In this document: positions 3,787 through 47,792 of the stretch, piece after piece | Layout: the number at the start of each line of letters is the position of its first letter | How positions within the stretch are numbered: position 1 is the first letter of the stretch | Assembly (NCBI GenBank): GCA_963734545.1 | Contig: CAVTHO010000003.1 | Span: 96,001 to 160,000, forward strand | Origin: an uncultured Spirochaetota bacterium | GTDB lineage: Bacteria; Spirochaetota; Spirochaetia; SZUA-6; Fen-1364 | DNA: 64,000 bases | Direction of reading: 5' to 3' | Made by a program: the position numbers and the translations under genes | The notes under the pieces: model-generated | What the model saw: the letters and a program-made list of their open reading frames with translations, nothing else | Database searches by the model: none | Told to the model about the DNA's origin: nothing

Positions 3787-5312
<1,526 letters not shown>

Positions 5313-7332: not shown

Positions 7333-8043
7333 ATGCCGAAGCTCGAGATCAGCAAGGTCCACGATGCATACGCCGGCGGCGGGGAATGCCCTCTCTGCAC
7401 CCTGATGGAAGGAGCGGAGGAGACATACCTGCGTTCCTTCCAGCATTCCCGCGTCATGGAGCCCCGGGTCCGGGTCAAGACCAATGAGACGGGCTTCTGC
7501 CCCGATCACTATCGCAAGCTGTACGCGCGGGAGAACAAGCTCGGTCTCGGCCTCGTCGTGCACACGCATCTTCGGGAGAAGCTGCCCGAGCTGCGCGCGG
7601 CGTTCGATACGCTGCGGGCGGCCGGCCGCAAGGGAAAAAAGATGGACGAGGCCGCAGCCTCCCTCGCGCGCCTCCATGACCGCTGCTTCATCTGCGAGCT
7701 GCTGCAGGGAGATCTGGACCGCTACGCCTTCACGATCCTGTTCCTGTGGAGCAAGGACGCGGAGTTCCTGCCGAGGTTCCGTTCTTCACGCGGCTTCTGC
7801 CTGGACCATTTTCTTTCGATCCTTGCCAGGGGCCGCGTGATGCTGAGGCCGGACAGGCTGGAGCGCTGGCTCGGTGACGCTGCCGCCCTCATGACGGACA
7901 GCCTGGAGCGCCTGGAGCGGGAGCTCGAAGCGTTTACCCAGCTTCATCACGACGCAAACAGGAGCCTGGGCACCGACGAGGAGCGCACGGCGCTCGCCCG
8001 TACCATGCAGAAGCTCGCCGGGGGCCGGTTCCGGCTGGAATGA
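7333..8043 (+). CDS. Hypothetical protein with duplicated CxxC...GFCxxH motif (DUF6062-like)
   Basis: CPLC...GFCPDH and CFIC...GFCLDH; family name from recall. Confidence 0.6.
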   Translation: MPKLEISKVHDAYAGGGECPLCTLMEGAEETYLRSFQHSRVMEPRVRVKTNETGFCPDHYRKLYARENKLGLGLVVHTHLREKLPELRAAFDTLRAAGRKGKKMDEAAASLARLHDRCFICELLQGDLDRYAFTILFLWSKDAEFLPRFRSSRGFCLDHFLSILARGRVMLRPDRLERWLGDAAALMTDSLERLERELEAFTQLHHDANRSLGTDEERTALARTMQKLAGGRFRLE

Positions 8044-8052
8044 GCGGGCCCC

Positions 8053-9015
8053 TCATTCCAGCCGGGAGAGGATTTCCAGAAAATCGCGGGGGATCGGTGC
8101 GGTGATCGTAACGGCCGCGCGCGTCATGGGGTGGATGAACGTGACGCGTTCCGCGTGCAGGCACTGCCGGGAGGGGAGGGAGTCGTCGAGGACGCCGGCG
8201 TTCCTCTGGTAGCGGAGGAAGAGCTCCTCGTCCTTGTACAGCAGGTCTCCCCAGACCGGGTGGCCGAGGGCGGCCAGGTGCACCCGTATCTGGTGCTGCC
8301 GGCCGGTGAGGGGGAACGCGGAAAGCAGCGTGTGCGCGGGCAGCCTGCGCCGCACGCGGTATTCGGTGACCGAAGGCAGGCCGTCCGGGCGCGCAGCCAT
8401 CTTGACGCGCACGGTGCTGGCCGCATCCCTTCCGATGGGAAGCGTGATCCTGCCCCCGTCCTCGGCGACTCTCCCCTCGACGCACGCCGCGTACTCCTTC
8501 GATAGGAGCGCGCGCGCGGTGAGGTCCTGCAGGGCCAGCAGGGCGTCCCGGACCTTCGCGATCAGCACGATGCCGCTCGTGAAGGTGTCCAGCCGGTTGA
8601 CCAGGCTCGGATAGAAGCCGCCATCTCCGTGATTCAGGCTGTCGCGGATGCTCCCCGCGTAAAGCTGGCGCGCGGACTGGATGACGGTGCCTGATTGCGT
8701 CCTGCCCATGGGGTGGGACGCGATGCCCGCCGGTTTGTTCACGGCCAGGAGATACTCGTCCTCGTACAGTATCTCGAGCTCCGGCTGAGGGCCTCTGTCG
8801 GGAACGCCTCGCCACTCGAGGGTGATCTCGTCCCCTTCCTTCAGCCGCGTGGAGGAGGCGTAGCGCCTTCCATTGAGAAGGGATTCTCCCATCTGGATTT
8901 TCTGCCTGATGCGCGTGCGGGAAAGGAAGGGAAGCTCCCGGCACAGGAATGCCACCGCGCGCATCCCGGCGCCGGCACCGTCAACGCGCAGCCGGGCGGG
9001 GGGTAGATCAGGCAT
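8053..9015 (-). CDS. RluA-family RNA pseudouridine synthase with S4 domain
   Basis: NKPAG, NRLDTFTSG, TGRQHQIRVH and GDLLY motifs. Confidence 0.9.
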   Translation of the reverse strand: MPDLPPARLRVDGAGAGMRAVAFLCRELPFLSRTRIRQKIQMGESLLNGRRYASSTRLKEGDEITLEWRGVPDRGPQPELEILYEDEYLLAVNKPAGIASHPMGRTQSGTVIQSARQLYAGSIRDSLNHGDGGFYPSLVNRLDTFTSGIVLIAKVRDALLALQDLTARALLSKEYAACVEGRVAEDGGRITLPIGRDAASTVRVKMAARPDGLPSVTEYRVRRRLPAHTLLSAFPLTGRQHQIRVHLAALGHPVWGDLLYKDEELFLRYQRNAGVLDDSLPSRQCLHAERVTFIHPMTRAAVTITAPIPRDFLEILSRLE

Positions 9016-10921
9016 GCTTCCGGGCGTCCAGGACTTCGCGCACCTTCAGCAGCAGGGCTGCGGGGCTGAACGGCTTCTGCAGAAAGGCGATGCCCGCGTG
9101 GAGCACGCCGTGATTGTCGATCACGTCCCGGGTGTAGCCGGACATGAACAGGGCCGGAACGCCGGGATGGGCAGCCGCCAGCCGCTCAACGAGTTCTCTG
9201 CCGCTCATGCCGGGCAGGACGACGTCGGTGATGATGAGGTCGATGTCTCCTCCCCGGGCCTCGATGATATCTTCCGCGTGTTCCCCATCGTCCGCCTCAT
9301 GGACGACATAACCGTAGCCGCCCAGCACGTTGGAGACAAGGACCCGTATCATGGACTCGTCTTCCACGAGGAGGATCGACTCCCTGCCCCCCCGTACCTC
9401 CGCGGGGGCCGTTTCCTTCGGCGCATCCGCTTCTCCCCGCACCCGGGGGAAGTAGAGATCGAAGGACGTTCCTTTTCCCGGCTCGCTCTCTGCCCAGATA
9501 TAGCCGCCGGTCTGCTTGACGATCCCATACACCGTGGAAAGCCCCAGCCCGGTGCCTTTCCCCACCTCCTTGGTGGTGAAGAAAGGCTCGAACAGATGGG
9601 CCTTCACATCCTTGTCCATGCCGCTCCCGGTGTCGCTGATCCGAAGCCGCACGTAGTCCCCCCGTGTCACGGTGTAACTGTTCTCCCGCCGGGAGGAATC
9701 CAGGAGGACGTTGCTGGTGTCCATCGTGATCCGCCCTCCCCGAGGCATGGCGTCACGCGAGTTGATGCAGAGGTTCATGATGACCTGCTCGATCTGACCG
9801 GGGTCGGCAAGGATGCTTCCCAACTCCGGGGTGAACCGGGTTTCAAGGGCAATGTCCTCCCCCAGAAGCCTCCTCAGCAGCTTCTCCAGCGTCGAAATGA
9901 GAATGTTGAGGTCGAGAATCCTCGGCCTCATCACCTGGCGCCTGCTGAAGGCCAGGAGCTGCTGGGTCAGGGAAGCCGCCCGGTTGCCCGCCTTCTTGAT
10001 CTCTTCCAGGTTTTTTTTCAGCGTCCCGGAATCGTCGAGGCTCAGCATGGAGTAGTCGCAATAGCCGATGATCGCGGTGAGCAGATTGTTGAAGTCGTGG
10101 GCAACCCCGCCGGCCAGCCTTCCCACCGCCTCCATTTTCTGCGCCTGGTTGAGCTGCTCGAGGAGCCGGGCGCGCTCCGAGACATCGCGCGCGACCCCGT
10201 AGACCTGCCGCTTTCCCCCCGGACCGGTGTCCGCGGTCAGGTGCGCCTCCATGGTCATCTTCCTTCCGTCAGAGGCGAAGAACTCGAACTGGGTCTCCCT
10301 GTCCACCCTGTACTCTCCCTCGAGGAGCTCCCGGAGAACGGCCCGCGCGCTCTCCTGCTCGTGCGCGGGGAGTCTGTCGATGATGAATGTGCCGATGTAG
10401 CGCGACGGCACATAGCCCGTGATGGCCTCGAGGCGGGTGCTGAGATACGTGATCATTCCATTCTCGTCGAGGGTGAAGATAATGTCGTTCACCCGCTCCG
10501 TCATGAGCCGGTAGCGGCGCTCGGATTCGACGAGCTGCGCCGTGCGTGCCTGCAGGCTTTCCACCATGGAATTGAAGGAGTCCGCGAGCCCACGGACCTC
10601 GTCTCCTCCGCGGATGCTGATGCGGTAGTCGAGGTTGCCGGCGCTGATGGTGCGCGTGCCGTGGAGGAGATGCACGAGCGGCCGCGTGATGGCCCTGCTC
10701 ACGAAGAGGCCCAGCACGAGTGAGAGCCCGATGCCGAGACTGGCCAGAAGGAGGGACTCGCGGAACAGCACGCTGGCGGTAAGCGGATCATCCGCGGCGG
10801 GCTGCCGCACGGTCAGGAAGAACAGGCTGAGCATTGAGACGGCAATGCACGCCAGGGACACCCCGACGAGGGCGGCGAATATCTTCACCGTGATGCTCTT
10901 CCAGAACGGCGCGATCTTCAC
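9008..10921 (-). CDS. Hybrid sensor histidine kinase (2 TM, HAMP, PAS, HisKA, HATPase, receiver)
   Basis: GTG 10921 overlaps the upstream TGA; [30 protein letters not shown] and receiver LLVEDE...TDVVLP...KP motifs. Confidence 0.9.
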
Positions 10922-11196
10922 GTCCGCGCTTCCTCTTTCTTCCTGCGGTAGCTCAGCTTCAGGCTTTCCGTCACGCCGTATTCGACGGAGCGCCGGGAGC
11001 AGAAGAGCGCAGAGGGATCCCCGTAGCGGAGGTACGCGGCGAACAGGCAGCCATCGCCGCAGATCGGCACCCACGCAATGGCGGCGCGCAGCTCGTCGTC
11101 GATGATGACCTGGGCGCGCGTCAGCGTGTGGAAGAGAAGGTGGGAGCCTTTTGCCGGGAAATCGGAGATCGAGGTGGTGAACCGGGAGGCTGTCAT
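10918..11196 (-). CDS. 92-aa protein resembling the N-terminus joined to the SPASM C-terminus of a peptide-modifying radical SAM enzyme (core absent)
   Basis: RBS AGGGAG; N-half HLLFHTLTRAQVIIDDEL; C-half WVPICGDGC...YGD....FC; no CxxxCxxC. Confidence 0.55.
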   Translation of the reverse strand: MTASRFTTSISDFPAKGSHLLFHTLTRAQVIIDDELRAAIAWVPICGDGCLFAAYLRYGDPSALFCSRRSVEYGVTESLKLSYRRKKEEART

Positions 11197-11205
11197 TGAC
11201 TCCCT

Positions 11206-11301
11206 TTACGCTCCCGTCCCGCTGAAGATCAGGCTGCAGCAGCTGATCGCCACGACGCCATCGGACACGCGTGAGCCTTCCTCGATGATTTCCAGGATCA
11301 T
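11206..11301 (-). CDS. 31-aa putative RiPP precursor peptide with Cys-Cys motif
   Basis: Read manually: MILEIIEEGSRVSDGVVAISCCSLIFSGTGA*. RBS-like AAGGAAG upstream; fills the gap between two operon genes. Confidence 0.7.
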   Translation of the reverse strand: MILEIIEEGSRVSDGVVAISCCSLIFSGTGA

Positions 11302-11306
11302 GTGTC

Positions 11307-12863
11307 TCACTTCCTTTCCAGATACCAGTTGTGCATACGGCCGCCCAGAGACGAGATCTCCTCCGGCGTGACACCGCGCAATCGGGCGGAACAGGCCGCG
11401 TACCGCTTCCCGAAGAAGAGGAAAGCGGCCGGCGCATCGTCCGCGATCAGAGCGTACATTTTCCTGTAGATGTCTCTCCTGTCATTGAAATCCGAGGCGA
11501 CCTTTCCCCTTTCGATCAGTCGGTCCACATCCGGATTGCGGTAGCCGGTGATGTTCCAGCCGCCGATCGATGAGGAGTGCCAGAACAGGCTCGCGGAAAG
11601 ATCGGGATCGGTGAACATGTTGAACTGGATGAGCGCCGCCTGGAACTCGCCCGCGGGCATCCTCTTCTCCACCATCTCATGCAGAGGGAGGACCACGACG
11701 TCCATCCGAATACCGATCTGGAGCAGCTGCCACTGCAGCCTCTTTGCGAGGGCGCCCTTCAACCTGTCTTCACCGCATTCGAGGACCGTGAACTGCAGAT
11801 TCCTGCCTTCCTTGTCCAGGATCCAATCGTTGTCGCTGTCTCTCCATCCCAGGTCTGAAAGGATCTTCGCCGCCTGCCGGGGATCGTACGCCTGCAGGTG
11901 GGGATCCGGATTGTAGGGCCAGGTCCCCGGTTTGAATGGACCGCTTGCCGCAAGTCCCTTTCCGCGCAGGACCGTGTCCAGGAGATCCCGGCGATCGATT
12001 GCCATGGCGATTGCCCGGCGCATGGCGCGCTGCGCGAAGAGCGGGTCCCGGGTGTTGAACAGGAGGGAGGAACAGAAATTTTCCAGGAACTCGTATCCCC
12101 TGAAGCGCCCGTCATTTTTGATCAGCACGTAATCGTCGTAGTCGACATCCGGGACCAGGTCCACCTGGCCTTGCAGCAGCGAGACCCACGCTTTTTTGTT
12201 GTCGGAGAAGAATTTGAAGACGATCCTGCCGAGCCGTGGTCTTCCCATGAAATAGCCGGGGTTGGCGTCCAGCGTGATCTGGCCGGGTGTCCAGCCGGAA
12301 AGGGTGAACGGGCCCGTCCCGATCGGGTGCCTGTCGAACTCGGCACTCGCGCCCCCTGCTTCCCGGAGCAGATGCGCGGGGACGATCGGCCGGCCGAGCA
12401 GGGCGGGGAGCAGCCGGTAGGGGGTTTTCAATTCAATCCTGAAGAAGTCCGCGCCGTCCGAGCGGAAAGACTTTACGACCTGCGAAAAATCACTGAATCG
12501 ATTTCCGTACTTCGGGTCAAAACCCTTCTCGTAAGTGAATGCCACGTCCTCCGCCGTCACCGGCGTGCCGTCGGAAAAACGAACCCCCTTTCTCATGCGG
12601 AAAGTCCAGGACAACCCATCCGCGGAAATCTCCCAGCTTTCCGCAAGGTCGGGTCCGGGCGCCGAGCCTCCGGCGAATGCGACCAGGCCGTCCGTGAAGC
12701 AATTGATGATCACATTTGCGAAGCCCTCGGGAGCGAACAGGGGGTTGAGGCTCGCCGGCTCGTCATAGTATGCAAGGACGAGCGTCCCCCCCCTGGGTGA
12801 CTGGTCAGAGTACGCGGCGCCGGCGACAAGCAGCAGGAGGAGCCCGGGTAAGAATCGCCTCAA
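11307..12863 (-). CDS. Peptide ABC transporter substrate-binding protein, family 5 (OppA/DppA-like); no permease or ATPase nearby
   Basis: Signal peptide, PASLNP, PDLAESWEISADG...F..RKGVRFSDG and PIGTGPF motifs. Confidence 0.9.
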   Translation of the reverse strand: MRRFLPGLLLLLVAGAAYSDQSPRGGTLVLAYYDEPASLNPLFAPEGFANVIINCFTDGLVAFAGGSAPGPDLAESWEISADGLSWTFRMRKGVRFSDGTPVTAEDVAFTYEKGFDPKYGNRFSDFSQVVKSFRSDGADFFRIELKTPYRLLPALLGRPIVPAHLLREAGGASAEFDRHPIGTGPFTLSGWTPGQITLDANPGYFMGRPRLGRIVFKFFSDNKKAWVSLLQGQVDLVPDVDYDDYVLIKNDGRFRGYEFLENFCSSLLFNTRDPLFAQRAMRRAIAMAIDRRDLLDTVLRGKGLAASGPFKPGTWPYNPDPHLQAYDPRQAAKILSDLGWRDSDNDWILDKEGRNLQFTVLECGEDRLKGALAKRLQWQLLQIGIRMDVVVLPLHEMVEKRMPAGEFQAALIQFNMFTDPDLSASLFWHSSSIGGWNITGYRNPDVDRLIERGKVASDFNDRRDIYRKMYALIADDAPAAFLFFGKRYAACSARLRGVTPEEISSLGGRMHNWYLERK

Positions 12864-12907
12864 GTAAGCTACCTTTCGTAAGGCGGGGACTAATCTTTAA
12901 TAGGGCC

Positions 12908-12936
12908 ATTTTAGTCAAAAACGTTACTCTTGTCAA
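12908..12936 (-). promoter_or_regulatory. Sigma70-type promoter of the binding protein-peptide-kinase operon
   Basis: TTGACA-N17-TAAAAT on the minus strand. Confidence 0.7.
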
Positions 12937-12956
12937 GAAAAACCTTAACTCCACTA

Positions 12957-14909
12957 TCAGGTGTTTTCCGCGAGCGGGAGCTTGAACAGGTCGACGAGGA
13001 CCGACAGGTTCCGCGGGTTTTCCATTATCGATCCTTCCTTTGTATACGCATATTCGATGAGGTCGGCGTGAACCTCCGTTATCCTGTGCCGCACCAGCTT
13101 CATCGTGGAGTTGACCGTGCCGTTCTTCTCGCTGAAAGGTTCGGCGACGAACTGGAACACGGAAGGAACCCATGCTGCCTGCACCTTTTTTGCCTTGGGA
13201 TCGGCCTTGAACCTGTACAGCTCGTCTTTGAGGATCGGCAGGAGCGCCTCGGCGCTGCGGATGCCGCGGCTTCGAATCAGCCGTTCGACCTTGCCCGTGT
13301 CCAGGCAGACGAGGGCAACCGTGTATTTCCTGTGGTCGCAGTACGCCATCACCTGGTCGATCACGTCCGTCGAGAAGCCTATTGCCTCTTCGATCTCCTC
13401 GGGGCTGTACTTCTCCCCGTCTTCCGTGATGAGCAGGGCCTTCTCCCGGCCGACCACGACGAGGAAACCGTCCGTGTCCCAGTAGGCGAGGTCTCCGGTG
13501 TACAGCCACCCGTCGCGCAGCGCGCGCGCGCTTGCATCGGGGTTCTTGAAATAGCCCTTCATGACATTGCCGCCGCGAATGACGATTTCTCCCGTCTCCT
13601 TCGGCCCCGCCGGACTGCCGTCCGCTTTCACCAGACGGCACTCGATGGAGTCGAACACGATGCCGGACGTTCCGAACTTGTGCTTCGCGGGGGTGTTCGC
13701 GCAGATGATGGGCGCCGCTTCGGTCAGACCGTAGCCCTGGTAGACGGGCACTCCGAACGCGGCGAAGAACTCCTGCTGCTTGACGTCGAGCAGCGCCCCG
13801 CCGCCGATGCAGAAGCGTATCGAGCCTCCGAAAACCATCTTCTTGATCTTGTTGAATATCAGGAGCTTCGCGATTCCATAGGGGAGCATGTTCTTCAAGC
13901 GGACGCCCAGGCGCGGCGCCGTGAACCCGTTTCCATTGAGCGATACGCCGGCCGCGATGCCTGCCTTGAAGAGCTTTTCGATCAGCCCGCCCTTCTCCTC
14001 CACGCCGGCGACGATCTTCTTCATGAGGTTGCCGCTCAGGGAAGGGACAGTGAAGAGAAAATGAGAGCGGGACTCGACCAGGTTGACGGGGATATTGCGG
14101 AGCGTTCCGATGCCGCCGCCGCGCGAGTCCACGAAGTACAGTGTCACGCCGCACACGAGTCCCGTGTACAGGCCCGCCGTGTGGGCAAAGGAGTGGTCAA
14201 CCGGAAGGATGATCAGGGAGCGCCACCCCGGCGGCAGGGGAATGGCTTTCACCGCGTCATGGCAGTTGGTCCAGTAGTTGAGGTGTGTCAGCATGATGCC
14301 CTTGGGGTTTCCCGTTGTCCCCGAGGTATAGCTGATCGTGACCGTGTCATCCTCTTCCACGGAGTCAATGCACTGGTCGAGCCTGGCACCGAGTGAGGGG
14401 AGGGCGGCCCGGCCCGCGGCGCGCGCCTCGTCAAAGCCGATCACGCGGTCCGCGCTCACTCCGTACTCAGCGGCGGTAGAGCGCGCCCACTCCGGGTCAT
14501 CGTCGAGGTAGATGACCTGGATCTGCCGGTTTTCGGCCCGACTGAAAGAACCGAGAACCTTCTTGAGCTGGTTCCTCGTGGTGAGTATCGCGCGCGCCTC
14601 GGAATGATCCAGCCGGAAGGGGATTTCCTCCTCGAGCAGCTTGATGGAAAGGGGAACAGACACGCACCCTGCCATCAGCAGGCCGAACTCTCCCACGATC
14701 CATTCGGGACTCCCCTCCGCCAGCACGGCAATGCGATCGTTCCTGCGGACGCCCGTGGAGAGCAGCCAGGCCGCGAATTCGCGCGCACGCTCCCGGGCCT
14801 CTCTGAATGAAACGGGAACCCAGCCGGCGTCGGTCTTCCTGTACGCGTAGGCGGCAGAGCCCCATTGGAGAGCCGCCTCATCCAGCATTCTCAGTACCGT
14901 TTTCTTCAT
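12957..14909 (-). CDS. Long-chain fatty acid-CoA ligase (AMP-binding)
   Basis: YTSGTTGNPKG, QGYGLTE and WLYTGD motifs. Confidence 0.9.
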   Translation of the reverse strand: MKKTVLRMLDEAALQWGSAAYAYRKTDAGWVPVSFREARERAREFAAWLLSTGVRRNDRIAVLAEGSPEWIVGEFGLLMAGCVSVPLSIKLLEEEIPFRLDHSEARAILTTRNQLKKVLGSFSRAENRQIQVIYLDDDPEWARSTAAEYGVSADRVIGFDEARAAGRAALPSLGARLDQCIDSVEEDDTVTISYTSGTTGNPKGIMLTHLNYWTNCHDAVKAIPLPPGWRSLIILPVDHSFAHTAGLYTGLVCGVTLYFVDSRGGGIGTLRNIPVNLVESRSHFLFTVPSLSGNLMKKIVAGVEEKGGLIEKLFKAGIAAGVSLNGNGFTAPRLGVRLKNMLPYGIAKLLIFNKIKKMVFGGSIRFCIGGGALLDVKQQEFFAAFGVPVYQGYGLTEAAPIICANTPAKHKFGTSGIVFDSIECRLVKADGSPAGPKETGEIVIRGGNVMKGYFKNPDASARALRDGWLYTGDLAYWDTDGFLVVVGREKALLITEDGEKYSPEEIEEAIGFSTDVIDQVMAYCDHRKYTVALVCLDTGKVERLIRSRGIRSAEALLPILKDELYRFKADPKAKKVQAAWVPSVFQFVAEPFSEKNGTVNSTMKLVRHRITEVHADLIEYAYTKEGSIMENPRNLSVLVDLFKLPLAENT

Positions 14910-14966
14910 GCCCGGGACGATACCATGGAAAGCCCCGCGCCGCCACTTGCCTGCGCGGGGGAATGC

Positions 14967-15848
14967 ATGCTTGAATCACTCACTTCAGCGGAACAGGGGC
15001 GGGGGCAACGGGTGGCAATTCTTCTTGCGGGGCTCTCTGCGCTCATGTACGGCGCGGCCGACTTCTGTGGCGGGCTGGGCACCCGGAAGAGCCCTCTCGT
15101 GACCGTGCTGGCGCTCTCACAGTTCGTCGGTCTCGTGCTCGCGCTGGGCATCTCGCTGCTGGAGGGGCAGGCGCTTCCGATTGCCGGGGACCTGGCCTGG
15201 GGCGCGATATCCGGGGTGTGCGGAACTGCCGGGCTTGCCGCGCTCTACACGGCCCTGGCCACCACGCCGGTTGCCGTGGCGTCCCCCGTTGCCGCTGTGG
15301 TCGGCGCGGTTATTCCCGTCCTGCTGGGCGTGACGCTGGGCGATCGGCCCGGCTCCCTGGCCTGGACCGGGATCGCGCTGGCCGTTCCCGCAATCGTCCT
15401 GCTCAGCGCGGGACCGGCCGCGAGCGTGAAGACCGGGCCGGTGCGGCGCGCGGCCCTTCTGGGCACGGCGGCAGGAATCGGCTTCGGCTTGTTCTTCTTC
15501 GCGATCTCCCGCACCGCGCACGCATCGGGGCTGTGGCCCCTGGTGACTGCCCGGGCGTCCACCATTTCGATCGTCGCGCTCTTCGCTCTCTTCTCCGGCC
15601 GGTCCCTCCGGCCGGCGCGGTCCGGGCTCCCTCTCATTCTGGTCTCCGGTGTGCTCGACATGGGCGCGAACATCGCGTTCCTGCTTGCAAGCAGGGCAGG
15701 CATGCTGTCCACCGTTGCGGTTGTCTCTTCGCTCTACCCCGGCCCTACCGTGCTTCTTGCCTGGCTGGTGCTGCGGGAGCGGCTTACGCCTCTCCGCGTC
15801 TGTGGCCTTGCCCTGGCCCTTGCGGGGGTCGCTCTCATTTCCGTCTGA
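14967..15848 (+). CDS. EamA/DMT family transporter
   Basis: About 10 hydrophobic helices; YGAADFCGG and SSLYP.....LA..VLRERL motifs; start uncertain (14967 or 15012). Confidence 0.85.
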   Translation: MLESLTSAEQGRGQRVAILLAGLSALMYGAADFCGGLGTRKSPLVTVLALSQFVGLVLALGISLLEGQALPIAGDLAWGAISGVCGTAGLAALYTALATTPVAVASPVAAVVGAVIPVLLGVTLGDRPGSLAWTGIALAVPAIVLLSAGPAASVKTGPVRRAALLGTAAGIGFGLFFFAISRTAHASGLWPLVTARASTISIVALFALFSGRSLRPARSGLPLILVSGVLDMGANIAFLLASRAGMLSTVAVVSSLYPGPTVLLAWLVLRERLTPLRVCGLALALAGVALISV

Positions 15849-18818: not shown

Positions 18819-19845
18819 CTAAGAAATCTCCATGAGCCTCCGCGCGGCATTCACGATGCGCACGGCGTCCGGGACATAGAACCTTTCCATCGGCGGAGAA
18901 AAAGGGGCCGGCGTGTCCGGCGCCGCCACCCGAGTGATCGGGGCCACGAGAAAGTCGATCATTTCTTCCGCGAGGGTGGCGGCGATCTCCGCTCCCAGAC
19001 CGCCGCGCCTCGGGCTTTCCTCCACCGTGATCACCCGCCCTGTTTTGGCCACGGACTCCTTCACCAGCTCCCAGTCGAATGGAACGATCGAGCGCGGATC
19101 GATCACCTCCGCGCTTATTCCCTGCCCGGCCAGGAGCGCGGCGGCCTCCATGGCCCTGTGCATCATGAGCAGCGTCGCGATGATCGTCACGTCGCTGCCT
19201 TCCCGCCGGACAATGCCCTTTCCGATCGGTACGAGATAATCCTCGTCGGGAATCATGCTCGACGCATCGATCGTGCCGGATTCGGAGCGCGGGCCCTTGG
19301 AGCCGTACAGGAGCTTGTGCTCGAAGATCAGCACGGGATTGCCGTCCCGGACCGCGGATTTCAGCAGCCCTTTTGCGTCATACGCCGTTGCGGGGGCCAC
19401 GAGCTTGATCCCCGGGCAGGGGAAGGAAAAAGGGCTCCATCATCTGCGCGTGCTGCGCTCCGCGACCCGTGACTCCCACGGGGGCGCGCATCACCATGGG
19501 CGTCGTGAGCTTCCCGCCCGACATGTAGCGCATCTTGGCCACCTGGTTCCCCACCTGGTCCATGGCGCAGAAAAGGAAATCGGAGTACTGCACGTCCGCG
19601 ATCGGCCTCATTCCCATGAGGGAAGCGCCCAGCGCCGCGCCCATCAGGCCCGCCTCCGAGATGGGAGTGTTCACCATCCGGTCGGGGAACTCCTTCTCCA
19701 GGCCGAGCGTCACGGTGAACGCGCCCCCCCACCCGCCGGGGATCCCGATGTCCTCGCCGATGCAGAACACACGCTCGTCCCTGCGCATTTCCTCCGCAAT
19801 CGCCTCCCGCAGTGCTTCCGCTATCCCGAGCCTGTGTGCCGTCAT
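18819..19845 (-). CDS. 2-oxoacid/acetoin dehydrogenase E1 beta subunit (frameshift near 19420)
   Basis: GEDIG..GG.F.VT, NTPISE and FEHKLLY motifs. Confidence 0.9.
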
Positions 19846-20811
19846 ACGAACATGTCCTCCAGCGCATCCTCCGGGGCGGGCTCGGGATCGGCAATCGCCT
19901 TTTCCACTGCCGCCTCGATCTCGGTCTTTACCCCGGCCCTGATTTCCTCGAGCGATTGCGGGTCTGCGATCCCCTCCGCCGCGAGCCAGCCGGCGAACCT
20001 TCCGATGGGTTCGTTCGCCACGGCCTGCTTCTTCTCTTCCTCCGGCTGGTACAGACCGGGGTCCCGCCGCGAATGGCCGGTGATCCTGTACGTGAGGAGC
20101 TCCAGCAGCGTGGGGCCTTTCCCCGCGCGGGCCCGCGCCACCGCCTCCCGCGCCGCCTCGTAGACGGCCAGCACATCGTTGCCGTCCACCGTCACTCCGG
20201 GGATGCCGTATGCGCAGGCCCTTTCAGAGACGTGCGCAACCTTCATGGAGAGCTTCACCGACGTCGAGGCCGCGTAGAGGTTGTTTTCAACGACGAAGAG
20301 CGCGGGCAGGTCCCAGACGGACGCCATGTTGAGGGACTCGTGGAAAGTTCCCTCGTTGGTGGCGCCATCTCCCATGAAGGCAACCGCAACGCGCTTCTGG
20401 CCGCGCATCTTGAAGGACAGGGCGATCCCGGTGGCGATGGGAAGCCCGCCGCCGACGATGGCAACCGCGGGCACGATCCCTTTCGAGAGGTCTCCCATGT
20501 GCATGGAGCCGCCCTTGCCCTTGCAGCACCCCGTTGCCTTGCCGAAAAGCTCGGCCATCATGCTCGCCACGTCCAGATCCCTTGGCAATGCAGTGCCCGT
20601 CCGGACGATGCGTGGAGGTGATGACGTCCTCCGCCTCCAGCGCGGCGCACACGCCCACGGCGCACGCTTCCTGTCCCTGGCACTGGTGAATCGTGCCGGG
20701 CATGATGCCCTCCAGGAACAGGAACTTCACGCGGTCCTCGAACTCGCGAATCAGGACCATTCTGCGGTACAGCCCCCGCAGCCAGGCGGTGTCGTACGAT
20801 GGTTTCTTCAC
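19842..20811 (-). CDS. TPP-dependent dehydrogenase E1 alpha subunit (frameshift near 20580)
   Basis: GQEA, STHR, GKGGSMH, GDGATNEG...ENN and TYRITGHS motifs. Confidence 0.9.
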
Positions 20812-43139: not shown

Positions 43140-43154
43140 GGCAGGGGCTTCGTG

Positions 43155-44462
43155 ATGAGAATCGTCCACTATATCAACCAGTTCTTCGCGGGAATCGGGG
43201 GGGAAGAAAAGGGCGGCTCCCCCCTCGAGCACTGCGATGGCCCCAAGGGCCCCGGCGTGGGCCTGCTTCCCCTCATGGGCGGCGAGGCCGAGATCGTGCG
43301 CACGATCTGGTGCGGTGACAACCTGATCAACCAGGAGCAGGAGCGGATCCTCGGTGAGATCGAGAAGCTGATCCGGGAAGTGAAACCCGACGTCGTGGTG
43401 GCCGGCCCGGCCTTCAACGCGGGCCGGTACGGGCTGGCGTGCGGCATGGTGGCGAAGCTGTGCACGGAAAAGCTCGGGATCCCCGCGCTCATCGGGCTGT
43501 TTCCCGAGAATCCCGCTGTCGAGATCTACCGCAAGGACGCCTATATCTATCCCTGCGCGGAGACCGCGGTGGGCATGCGCAAGGACCTGCCTGGCCTGGC
43601 GAAGCTCCTCGTGCGGCTGGCAAAGAACGGGAAGCTCGGGCCCGCGGCAGTGGAAGGTTACCTTCCCCGGGGGTACCGTTACAACGAGATCGTGGCAGCG
43701 AACGCCGCGGTGCGGTCCATCGAAATGCTGAAGAAGCGCCTCAAAGGGGAGAACCCCCTGACCGAGGTGCCCCTGCGGACCTTCGAGAAGGTTCCCCCGG
43801 CCGCGCCGGTGCGCAATCTCCGGGAGGCAACTGTCGCGATCGTTACCGGCGGCGGCATGGTGCCGAAAGGAAACCCGGACAAGCTGAAGCAGGCATTCGC
43901 CGATTCCTTCGGCACGTACTCGATCGCGGGAATGAACGAGCTGCCCGCGGGGGACTTCAAGGGCATTCACGGCGGCTACGACTCGACCTGGGTGGACGAG
44001 GACCCCGACAGGGTCGTTCCCGTCGACGTGCTGCGCGGCCTCGAGAAGGAAGGCAGGTTCAAGCGCCTCCTGAATGAGTACGTGGTGCTGTGCGGCATCG
44101 GCACCAATGTGGCCATGAGCAGGAAGCTCGGCGCCGACATCGCCGAGCAGCTCAAGAGAAGGGAGGTATCGGCCGCCATCTACACCTCCACATGAGGAAC
44201 CTGCACTCGTTGCGTGTCAACGATGCAGAAAGAGGCTGAAAGGGCCGGTATCCCCACAGCCTTGATCACCGCGATACCGTCCGTGGCGAAGTCGGTCGGG
44301 GTGAGCAGGATCATCACCGGAGGCGGCATCCCTTATCCGGTGGGCAACCCCTCCCTGCCCCGGGAGCGCGAGATCGAGTTCAGGAAGCGCCTCGTGGAAA
44401 AGGCGCTCGAGGCTGTCAGCACGGAGGTCAAAGGGCCCACCGTGTTCGATGTGAGCCTGTAG
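43155..44462 (+). CDS. grdB: Glycine/sarcosine/betaine reductase selenoprotein B (Sec at TGA 44193-44195)
   Basis: HYINQFFAGIGGEE, GPAFNAGRYG and HGGYD motifs; in-frame TST-U-GTCTRC continues into ORF 44214..44462. Confidence 0.92.
44201..44228 (+). promoter_or_regulatory. Putative SECIS hairpin of grdB
   Basis: CTGCA-C-TCGTTG-CGTGT-CAACGA-TGCAG, starting 5 nt after the UGA. Confidence 0.65.
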
Positions 44463-46997: not shown

Positions 46998-47459
46998 ATG
47001 CTGGAAGGAAAGAAGATCATTATTCTCGGGGACCGGGACGGGATACCGGGCGGCGCCATCGAGGCGTGCCTCGCGGGGAAAAACGTGGAGATCGTGTTCT
47101 CCACGACCGCGTGCTTTGTCTGAACGAGCGCCGGAGCAATGGACCTGGAGAACCAGAAACGGGTGAAAGCCCTGGCGGAGCAGATCGGCAAGGAGAACAT
47201 CGTCGTCCTCCTTGGCGGCGCCGACGCCGAGGCGAGCGGGCTGATCGCTGAAACGGTGATCGCCGGCGATCCCGCGTATGCAGGTGCATTGACAGGAGTC
47301 CAGTTGGGACTCCCCGCGTATCACATTCTCGAGCCCGAGATCAGGCAGGAGATCGATCCTGCCGTGTACGAAGCGAACATCGCAATGATGGAGATGGTGC
47401 TGTCCGTGGCCGACATCGTGAAAGAGGTGTCGTCCATCAGGAACAAGCTCCTCTCCTGA
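46998..47459 (+). CDS. grdA: Reductase selenoprotein A (Sec at TGA 47121-47123)
   Basis: RBS AAGGAGGT; MLEGKKIIILGDRDGIPG...ACFV-U-TSAGAMDLENQ, in frame with ORF 47139..47459. Confidence 0.93.
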
Positions 47460-47471
47460 CGGAGACGTGAA

Positions 47472-47792
47472 ATGACCGAGCTGGACAAGGACAACTTCGA
47501 CCAGACCGTGCTCGCGCACAAGGGCGTGTACCTGGTCGATTTCTGGAGCGAGACGTGCGAGACATGCCTGGACATGATGCCGCAGATCGAGACACTGGCG
47601 CGCGACCTCGAGGGTCGGGTCGGCTTCGGCAAGGTGAACATCCAGGGAAACAGGCGGCTGGCCATCCGTGAGAAGGTGCTCGGCCTTCCCAATATATCGA
47701 TCTACAAGGACGGGCAGAAGATCACCTCCTTCTCCCAGACATTCACGGCAGACCAGGTGAAGACGGCGGTGGAGGCGCTGATCGGTGGCTGA
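47472..47792 (+). CDS. trxA: Thioredoxin (Grd-associated type)
   Basis: VDFWSETCETC and NRRLAI..KVLGLP motifs. Confidence 0.85.
   Translation: MTELDKDNFDQTVLAHKGVYLVDFWSETCETCLDMMPQIETLARDLEGRVGFGKVNIQGNRRLAIREKVLGLPNISIYKDGQKITSFSQTFTADQVKTAVEALIGG

Follow-up and report, generated by a model that had tools for sequence, protein, structure and literature searches.

A geopeptide-like precursor gene beside a probable maturase remnant in an uncultured spirochaete

The peptide gene and the genes around it

The stretch of DNA analysed here, which we call the window, comprises 64,000 nucleotides (64.3% G+C) from the assembly of an uncultured Spirochaetota bacterium. On its minus strand, positions 11301..11206 translate to MILEIIEEGSRVSDGVVAISCCSLIFSGTGA followed by TAA, and we describe this 31-aa product as a geopeptide-like precursor on the strength of its conservation and of the matches that the corresponding peptides of its relatives make to the geopeptide model TIGR04229. 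The ATG of the peptide gene (11206..11301) lies 5 nt past the stop codon of a binding-protein gene (TGA, 11309..11307), and the next ATG, at 11196, which opens a 92-aa ORF, lies 9 nt past the peptide TAA. Both ATGs are preceded by purine-rich ribosome-binding stretches, GGAAAGGAAG in the case of the peptide gene, with 8 nt from its end to the ATG, and AGGGAG in the case of the 92-aa ORF. The peptide itself can be divided into a leader that is acidic and beta-prone (MILEIIEEG), a linker that varies (residues 14–18) and a conserved core of the form ISCCS.(I/V)F.GTGA. When all six reading frames of the window were scanned for the motif, no further peptide of this type turned up, the sole other match being antisense to the kinase gene described below.

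Related loci were sought with the binding protein as query in a collection of species-representative genomes, in which 81 pattern matches gave three confirmed ones. Two of these are an uncultured Spirochaetota MAG (L001) and an uncultured Spirochaetaceae MAG (L002), with binding-protein identities to the window of 89% and 81%, respectively; the third, from Undibacterium (L003), has an unrelated binding protein (30% identity over 95 residues) and was left out of the comparisons. A preliminary description made from the window had given the coordinates of the peptide gene, its 31-aa Cys-Cys product, the ribosome-binding site and the 5-nt and 9-nt spacings, all of which proved correct on re-translation, and its placement of the DNA in a spirochaete is consistent with a FlaB-type flagellin in the window and with the two Spirochaetota relatives.

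Judged from its sequence, the locus is an operon in which a promoter is followed by the genes for the binding protein, the peptide, the maturase (in the window, what we interpret as a remnant of it) and a hybrid histidine kinase. The genes are tightly packed in the window, with gaps of 5 and 9 nt and then an overlap of the nucleotides GTGA. Upstream of the binding-protein gene, on the same strand, stands a sigma-70-like promoter sequence, TTGACA-17-TAAAAT (12908..12936), which agrees with the consensus at 11 of 12 positions; two sites of the promoter type were observed in the searched region, against 0.8 expected. Neither hexamer is altered in L001 or L002, and over its 111 nt the promoter region has a mean column identity of 93%, compared with 81–88% over the flanking alignments, so that this site is likely to be the operon promoter. 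The A+T-rich region at 12908–12960 (minus strand) is itself more conserved, at 93% column identity, than the surrounding coding DNA and may include an operator for a regulator fed by the kinase.

The binding-protein gene (11307..12863, minus strand) encodes a secreted solute-binding protein of family 5, the oligopeptide/nickel type, 518 aa in length (Pfam SBP_bac_5, E 2e-79), with an N-terminal hydrophobic leader, no transmembrane segment and a dN/dS of 0.12–0.14. The NikA and Opp models of NCBIfam score far under their cutoffs on it, and its closest solved structure is the nonapeptide-binding AppA of B. subtilis (1xoc, E 1.3e-59). No gene for an ABC permease or ATPase lies beside it in the neighbourhood, and the 11–13 kb shared by the window and its relatives hold neither a protease nor a dedicated exporter.

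The hybrid histidine kinase (9008..10921, minus strand) has the order TM-loop-TM-HAMP-PAS-HisKA-HATPase-REC, as seen from Pfam domains and hydrophobic segments. The latter fall within residues 8–40 and 51–79 and leave an outside loop of only ~15–20 aa, too small for ligand binding by the kinase alone. The gene starts with a GTG that overlaps the TGA of the 92-aa ORF (GTGA), an identical overlap is found in L001 and L002, and its dN/dS is 0.11–0.13. An RluA-type pseudouridine synthase gene (8053..9015, minus strand; PseudoU_synth_2, E 1.4e-24) overlaps the kinase stop by 8 nt, is present at the equivalent position in both relatives and may close the transcript. Just beyond the operon, at 7333–8043 on the plus strand, a divergent gene encodes a Cys-rich DUF6062 protein (E 3.7e-52) and occupies the same place in L001 and L002.

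Farther away in the window are glycine/sarcosine/betaine reductase genes at 43152–44195 (+) and 47139–47459 (+), and a thioredoxin gene at 47472–47792. The GrdB ORF stops exactly at the end of the GRDB profile (347/347) and the GrdA ORF covers only profile positions 47–147, a pattern of truncation such as in-frame TGA selenocysteine codons within both genes would produce.

Conservation of the peptide gene

Since the window has ~64% G+C, a bare open frame of 31 codons means little, and it is the conservation of the frame in position, length and residues among relatives that lifts it above chance. A 31-codon ORF is found at the equivalent position in L001 (MILEIIEEGSRVSADPVPISCCSLVFSGTGA) and in L002 (MILEIIEEGTRVSAAAVPISCCSMVFNGTGA), with 23 of the 31 residues invariant among the three sequences and the differences clustered at residues 14–18. 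When 1.84 billion representative proteins were searched with a profile, three matches at E <= 0.001 came back, one of which, P0044 in the protein library, is a fourth allele of 31 aa that is one residue away from the L002 peptide; the other two, stretches of 14–18 residues in proteins of 719 and 5998 aa, were taken as spurious. Across the four alleles residues 1–13 and 19–23 are invariant or nearly so, and Cys21-Cys22 is present in all four, while Pro at residue 18 is found in the other three and is replaced by Ala (P18A) in the window. A search of the ESM Atlas gave a top score of 0.79, under the level of a lead. The small ORF is thus conserved and has both a leader and a Cys-bearing core, as is looked for in precursors of the sactipeptide or ranthipeptide kind.

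There are no indels inside the ORF, and the spacer after its stop varies from 9 nt in the window to 70 nt in L001 and 14 nt in L002. An in-frame GTG, 9 nt upstream of the ATG and overlapping the binding-protein stop, is a candidate for an alternative start; the ATG is the likelier of the two because the three codons that the GTG would add are different in each relative (RH, RP, TT). By the Nei-Gojobori method the peptide gene has a dN/dS of 0.27–0.42, a value that rests on small counts, compared with 0.11–0.14 for the binding protein and kinase. One-sided Fisher tests give an excess of synonymous change in the peptide between the window and L002 (p = 0.012) and between L001 and L002 (p = 0.034), the p value for the pair of the window and L001 being 0.19, and the distribution of variable sites over the codon positions (5/4/9) is by itself not significant. 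The view that the frame is a functionless accident of G+C-rich intergenic sequence could draw on this last result and on the fact that short ORFs are common at 64% G+C, but it would have to account for a start, a stop, a length and three quarters of the residues being conserved while indels fall only outside the ORF, for the synonymous excess in two of three comparisons, and for the family match and the position ahead of a gene for a maturase with a predicted RRE, both described below. We find a chance frame hardly credible, and on its sequence record we take the 31-codon ORF to be a real, conserved small gene.

In L001 the longer spacer reflects a 61-nt insertion (7622–7682), past the peptide stop and ahead of the maturase gene, that is absent from the window and L002 and contains a ~23-nt tandem duplication, each copy with a hairpin GCACGG-TACT-CCGTGC. 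We considered this hairpin as an attenuator and rejected it, its folding being no better than that of shuffled sequences (z = 0.05). It bears on the question of whether the small ORF acts as a regulatory upstream frame, for example a sensor with tandem Cys codons that tunes translation downstream, a role for which the two adjacent Cys codons, the close spacing of the next gene and the duplicated hairpin of L001 would all be suited. Amino-acid identity, however, is kept along the entire leader and core and so extends beyond the Cys codons, the relatives' peptides match the geopeptide precursor model, the hairpin is lacking in two of the three loci, and Rfam has no match at all in positions 8000..15000 of the window, which together make a regulatory frame very improbable.

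The maturase of the relatives and the geopeptide family

In both L001 and L002 the gene directly after the peptide encodes a 439-aa enzyme composed of a predicted RiPP recognition element (RRE), a radical SAM domain and a SPASM domain. Pfam recognizes the Radical_SAM domain in both proteins, with the cluster motif CNF(R/G)C(G/T)YC. In an alignment of 34 maturase sequences (those of L001 and L002 plus 32 homologues) C100, C104 and C107, which form the CX3CX2C motif, are invariant, as are C353, C384, C387, C393, C397 and C413; C333 is nearly invariant, which completes a seven-Cys SPASM pattern for two auxiliary clusters. An AF2 model of the L001 maturase (pLDDT 90.3, pTM 0.88) has, ahead of the barrel, strands at residues 7–11, 18–23 and 29–33 followed by helices at 34–41, 50–61 and 69–85, and these three predicted strands and three predicted helices have the layout of an RRE. 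The best folds for the model in the PDB are CteB (TM 0.66–0.69), then TigE and SuiB, and the model aligns over its full length with CteB, which bears an RRE. CteB is also the best PDB match by sequence (E 1.1e-11), although the sequence identity in the fold alignment is only ~18%. A tblastn search of a plasmid collection with the maturase gave 85 records, all under 60% identity with the best listed at ~30%, none of them of the family.

Among NCBIfam models the top match of the relatives' maturase is the geopeptide maturase, TIGR04280, with 244.2 bits for L001 and 227.8 bits for L002, and the match runs end to end (maturase residues 1–426, profile positions 1–421 of 428); the next-best models are TIGR04463, then CefB and then PapB. 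The relatives' peptides in turn have a single NCBIfam match, to the geopeptide model TIGR04229, at 15.1 bits (E 0.016) in L001 and 16.0 bits (E 0.008) in L002, and the 22 positions of this model span residues 3–26 of the peptide, from the acidic leader through the Cys-Cys pair. For the window peptide, neither NCBIfam nor Pfam yields a match, even with the threshold relaxed to E <= 10. NCBI's curated cutoffs stand at 400 bits for TIGR04280 and 30 bits for TIGR04229 and are reached by none of the sequences of the window, L001 or L002, and because both peptide and maturase fall under them the system is by the NCBI rule a relative of the geopeptide family and not a member. It resembles the computationally defined geopeptide pair in that TIGR04229 and TIGR04280 are the best models for both partners in the relatives and in that a precursor of ~30 aa is encoded directly upstream of the maturase, and it differs in its host phylum, here Spirochaetota, and in its scores below the cutoffs. 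On these sequence comparisons we regard it as a sister family to geopeptide, a label that marks the nearest neighbour only. The geopeptide family itself has apparently never been characterised and appears to be known only as database models: as a whole word, alone or with "radical SAM", "geopeptide" is absent from the searched literature (texts other than subscription-only ones), in which "gageopeptide" accounts for the within-word matches and any one of the three model accessions is cited in a single paper.

The peptide had been proposed in the preliminary description to resemble geopeptide precursors and to be the substrate of a radical SAM maturase. The reading frame and the Cys-Cys motif are both kept in L001 and L002. 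The resemblance stands for these relatives, in which the geopeptide models are the nearest for both partners and the peptides match TIGR04229 at 15–16 bits, with the reservation that all scores lie below the cutoffs; it was not recovered for the window peptide, which matches nothing. The role of substrate finds similar backing in L001 and L002, where an intact maturase gene adjoins the peptide, and falls short in the window, where the adjoining gene, whose nature the preliminary description did not recognise, is a remnant only.

The association of binding protein and maturase seems to extend to at least four other contigs, as inferred from equal contig sizes alone. When the lists of maturase and binding-protein homologues were compared for pairs of equal-sized contigs with parallel identities, four pairs from the same source were found: a 6794-nt contig (binding protein 84%, maturase 84% identity), a 14094-nt contig (54% and 57%), a 676614-nt contig (56% and 53%) and a 6149-nt contig (47% and 43%). 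A fifth pair of 2922 nt (52% and 51%) is less certain, as its members come from different source databases, and a sixth of 2010 nt, with mismatched identities (34% and 81%), was taken as coincidence. A contig of 6–7 kb leaves the two genes no room to lie far apart. Named homologues of the binding protein, at 34–35% identity, include "peptide-binding proteins" of Geobacter pelophilus, Geoalkalibacter, Trichloromonadaceae and other Deltaproteobacteria; the Deltaproteobacteria, and Geobacter among them, are what we take to be the group in which the geopeptide family was defined.

The maturase remnant and its meaning

In the window the place of the maturase gene is taken by the 92-aa ORF at 10918..11196 (minus strand), which alignment and tblastn identify as the product of an in-frame deletion in a radical SAM/SPASM maturase. 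It corresponds to maturase residues 1–41, with the three predicted RRE strands, joined in frame to residues 389–439, with the equivalents of the last three SPASM cysteines (C393, C397 and C413) and the C-terminal helix. Searched against the window by tblastn, the L001 maturase matches only with residues 1–44 (11196..11065) and 388–437 (11076..10927); the next-best match has an E value of 0.63, and there is thus no second copy in the window by this method. The remnant gene is 1041 nt (347 codons) shorter than the L001 maturase gene. Missing from it are most of the predicted RRE, the entire radical SAM core, CX3CX2C motif included, and four of the seven SPASM cysteines. Its odd match to TIGR04280, 11.3 bits to the C-terminus (profile positions 383–417 of 428), and the absence from the library of any relative but itself in the size range of 50–161 aa are both explained if it is a deletion product. 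Maturase homologues down to 36% identity measure 435–460 aa, for which reason we consider the full-length enzyme ancestral and the window form a deletion. The window is collinear with L001 and L002 over 11–13 kb, and the deletion is the sole large difference besides the 61-nt insertion of L001.

The junction of the deletion lies within 11065..11092 (minus strand), at about 11074|11073, and is located by blastn and by comparison with the intact genes to a precision of a few codons: the blastn segments flanking the deletion overlap at 11092..11076, and the exact junction codon is uncertain because MAFFT sets four junction residues across the gap. A 9-nt word, GCTGCGCGC, occurs in the intact genes 12–15 nt upstream of each breakpoint, but the join has a blunt appearance. 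Peptide and remnant are in one reading frame in the window, and a read-through fusion was therefore considered; this was rejected, and the shared frame is a coincidence, because the frames differ in L001 (starts at 7527 and 7693) and in L002 (starts at 4966 and 5076). The loss being in frame and the GTGA overlap being retained, we read the deletion as having occurred under selection for translation of the kinase. A test for relaxed constraint on peptide plus remnant in the lineage of the window is not significant (p = 0.76), with 11 lineage-specific changes in the window and 5 in L001, against 70 and 24 in the binding protein and kinase. The deletion is recent, or else the test, on 123 residues, has no power.

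Several other genes of the window look frameshifted, and the quality of the assembly is for that reason not above suspicion. Split, overlapping ORFs occur at 18819–19400/19378–19845 (−), 22113–22838/22757–23170 (+) and 46183–46542/46448–46849 (+), and ORFs that are split or short at the N-terminus at 19842–20588 (−) and 1782–2162 (−). The genes affected are those for the beta and alpha E1 subunits of a pyruvate/2-oxoacid dehydrogenase, a SorC-type sugar-binding regulator, a thioredoxin-reductase-like flavoprotein and an ABC ATPase, and their state points to indel errors in a long-read assembly or to genuine pseudogenes.

Split ORFs of this sort are typical of indel-prone assemblies and raise the question of whether the deletion is an artefact of assembly, or else a minority strain variant in a population that carries the intact precursor-maturase pair, as the lack of any significant excess of lineage-specific change in the peptide and remnant would also allow. 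Errors of the indel type, however, do not take out 1041 bp, and the only repeat near the junction, the 9-nt word, is too short for an assembly collapse. The flanks are moreover collinear with both relatives, and a loss that is exactly in frame and retains the GTGA coupling resembles a selected natural allele. An artefact or minority variant therefore appears distinctly unlikely to us.

If the deletion is natural, the window peptide may still work, either through a second radical SAM maturase encoded outside the window or by acting unmodified. Its ORF, its ribosome-binding site and the putative operon promoter are intact, no decay is detectable, and the 64 kb covered are only part of the genome. 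Against this, a Radical_SAM domain is lacking from all 53 probable genes of the window, tblastn shows no further maturase copy there, P18A has lost a residue that the other three alleles retain, and maturases that depend on an RRE usually have their substrate encoded next to them. Continued function of the peptide in the window organism is, in our estimation, quite improbable.

The explanation that we prefer, and consider probable as a whole, is that the ORF is a genuine RiPP precursor gene of a sister family to geopeptide whose maturase was lost by deletion in the window, leaving the peptide stranded. In the intact relatives the four genes, from binding protein through precursor and maturase to hybrid kinase, would be transcribed as a single unit from one conserved promoter. 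The acidic, strand-forming leader (ILEIIEE) would dock on the N-terminal RRE of the maturase, and the radical SAM core, with its two SPASM auxiliary clusters, would then modify the core peptide around Cys21-Cys22. In the window the 1041-bp in-frame deletion would have taken the catalytic part of the maturase and left the precursor, binding protein, kinase and translational coupling of the kinase intact, and the peptide would be a stranded substrate, probably still translated and left unmodified by its cognate enzyme.

The chemistry of such a modification can be suggested from known systems. CteB (SCIFF/thermocellin), PapB (ranthipeptides) and CrpC (TIGR04463) likewise combine an RRE, a radical SAM domain and a twin-cluster SPASM domain, and their Cys-containing precursors are encoded next door, as in the relatives' loci; their substrates differ from the present core, which has two adjacent cysteines and no Cys-rich repeat. 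Thioether formation is reported for CrpC, a member of TIGR04463, as well as for PapB and CteB (PMC13692751), and because all of these characterised near relatives make thioethers, sulfur-to-carbon thioether cross-links would be the most likely product here.

A wider reading takes the binding protein, peptide, maturase and kinase as one self-signalling circuit. In methanobactin operons MbnE, a protein related to OppA/AppA, binds Cu-methanobactin (PMC7558416). Those operons resemble the present one in encoding a binding protein of the family-5 OppA/AppA type with a RiPP precursor and a maturation enzyme, and differ in an unrelated maturation chemistry, in a TonB receptor and exporter that are not seen here, and in having import genes where the binding protein of the present operon is paired with a histidine kinase. 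The pairing itself has its likeness in LuxP/LuxQ, TorT/TorS and ChvE/VirA, in which the kinase senses its signal through a separate periplasmic binding protein; here too an orphan binding protein shares an operon with a kinase that is nearly without a loop, although the binding proteins of those systems are of sugar or TMAO types and the present one is of the oligopeptide family. In such a circuit the cross-linked peptide would be released, caught outside by the AppA-like binding protein and read by the kinase, and the deletion in the window would have ended production of the signal while the receptor kinase continued to be translated. The organism of the window would in that case be a non-producer still able to listen, and signal-negative cheaters do occur in other quorum-sensing systems. 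The absence of an exporter and of a leader protease from the neighbourhood weakens the self-signalling reading, which we put forward as a conjecture, by analogy with these systems, to which we give rather little probability.

The system belongs to a known class, that of Cys peptides modified by radical SAM/SPASM enzymes. As far as sequence can tell, this is the nearest thing to a geopeptide system in another phylum, with an unusual natural allele in which the maturase is deleted. The four precursor alleles, the ~35 near-full-length maturase homologues and the confident model of the enzyme define a second, spirochaetal branch of a geopeptide-type family, and the sequences and model now available suffice for the design of a co-expression experiment on the fate of the two adjacent cysteines. 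For annotation, the locus offers a 31-aa gene of the size that length filters miss and a 92-aa ORF that is better named a maturase remnant than a hypothetical protein. The window allele amounts to a natural knockout of the maturase, with the substrate and the putative receptor left in place. The linkage to a binding protein of the oligopeptide type, and here also to a kinase, suggests a role in sensing or re-capture rather than killing, and a self-signalling circuit, if true, would be a RiPP pheromone sensed by a binding-protein-dependent kinase in spirochaetes.
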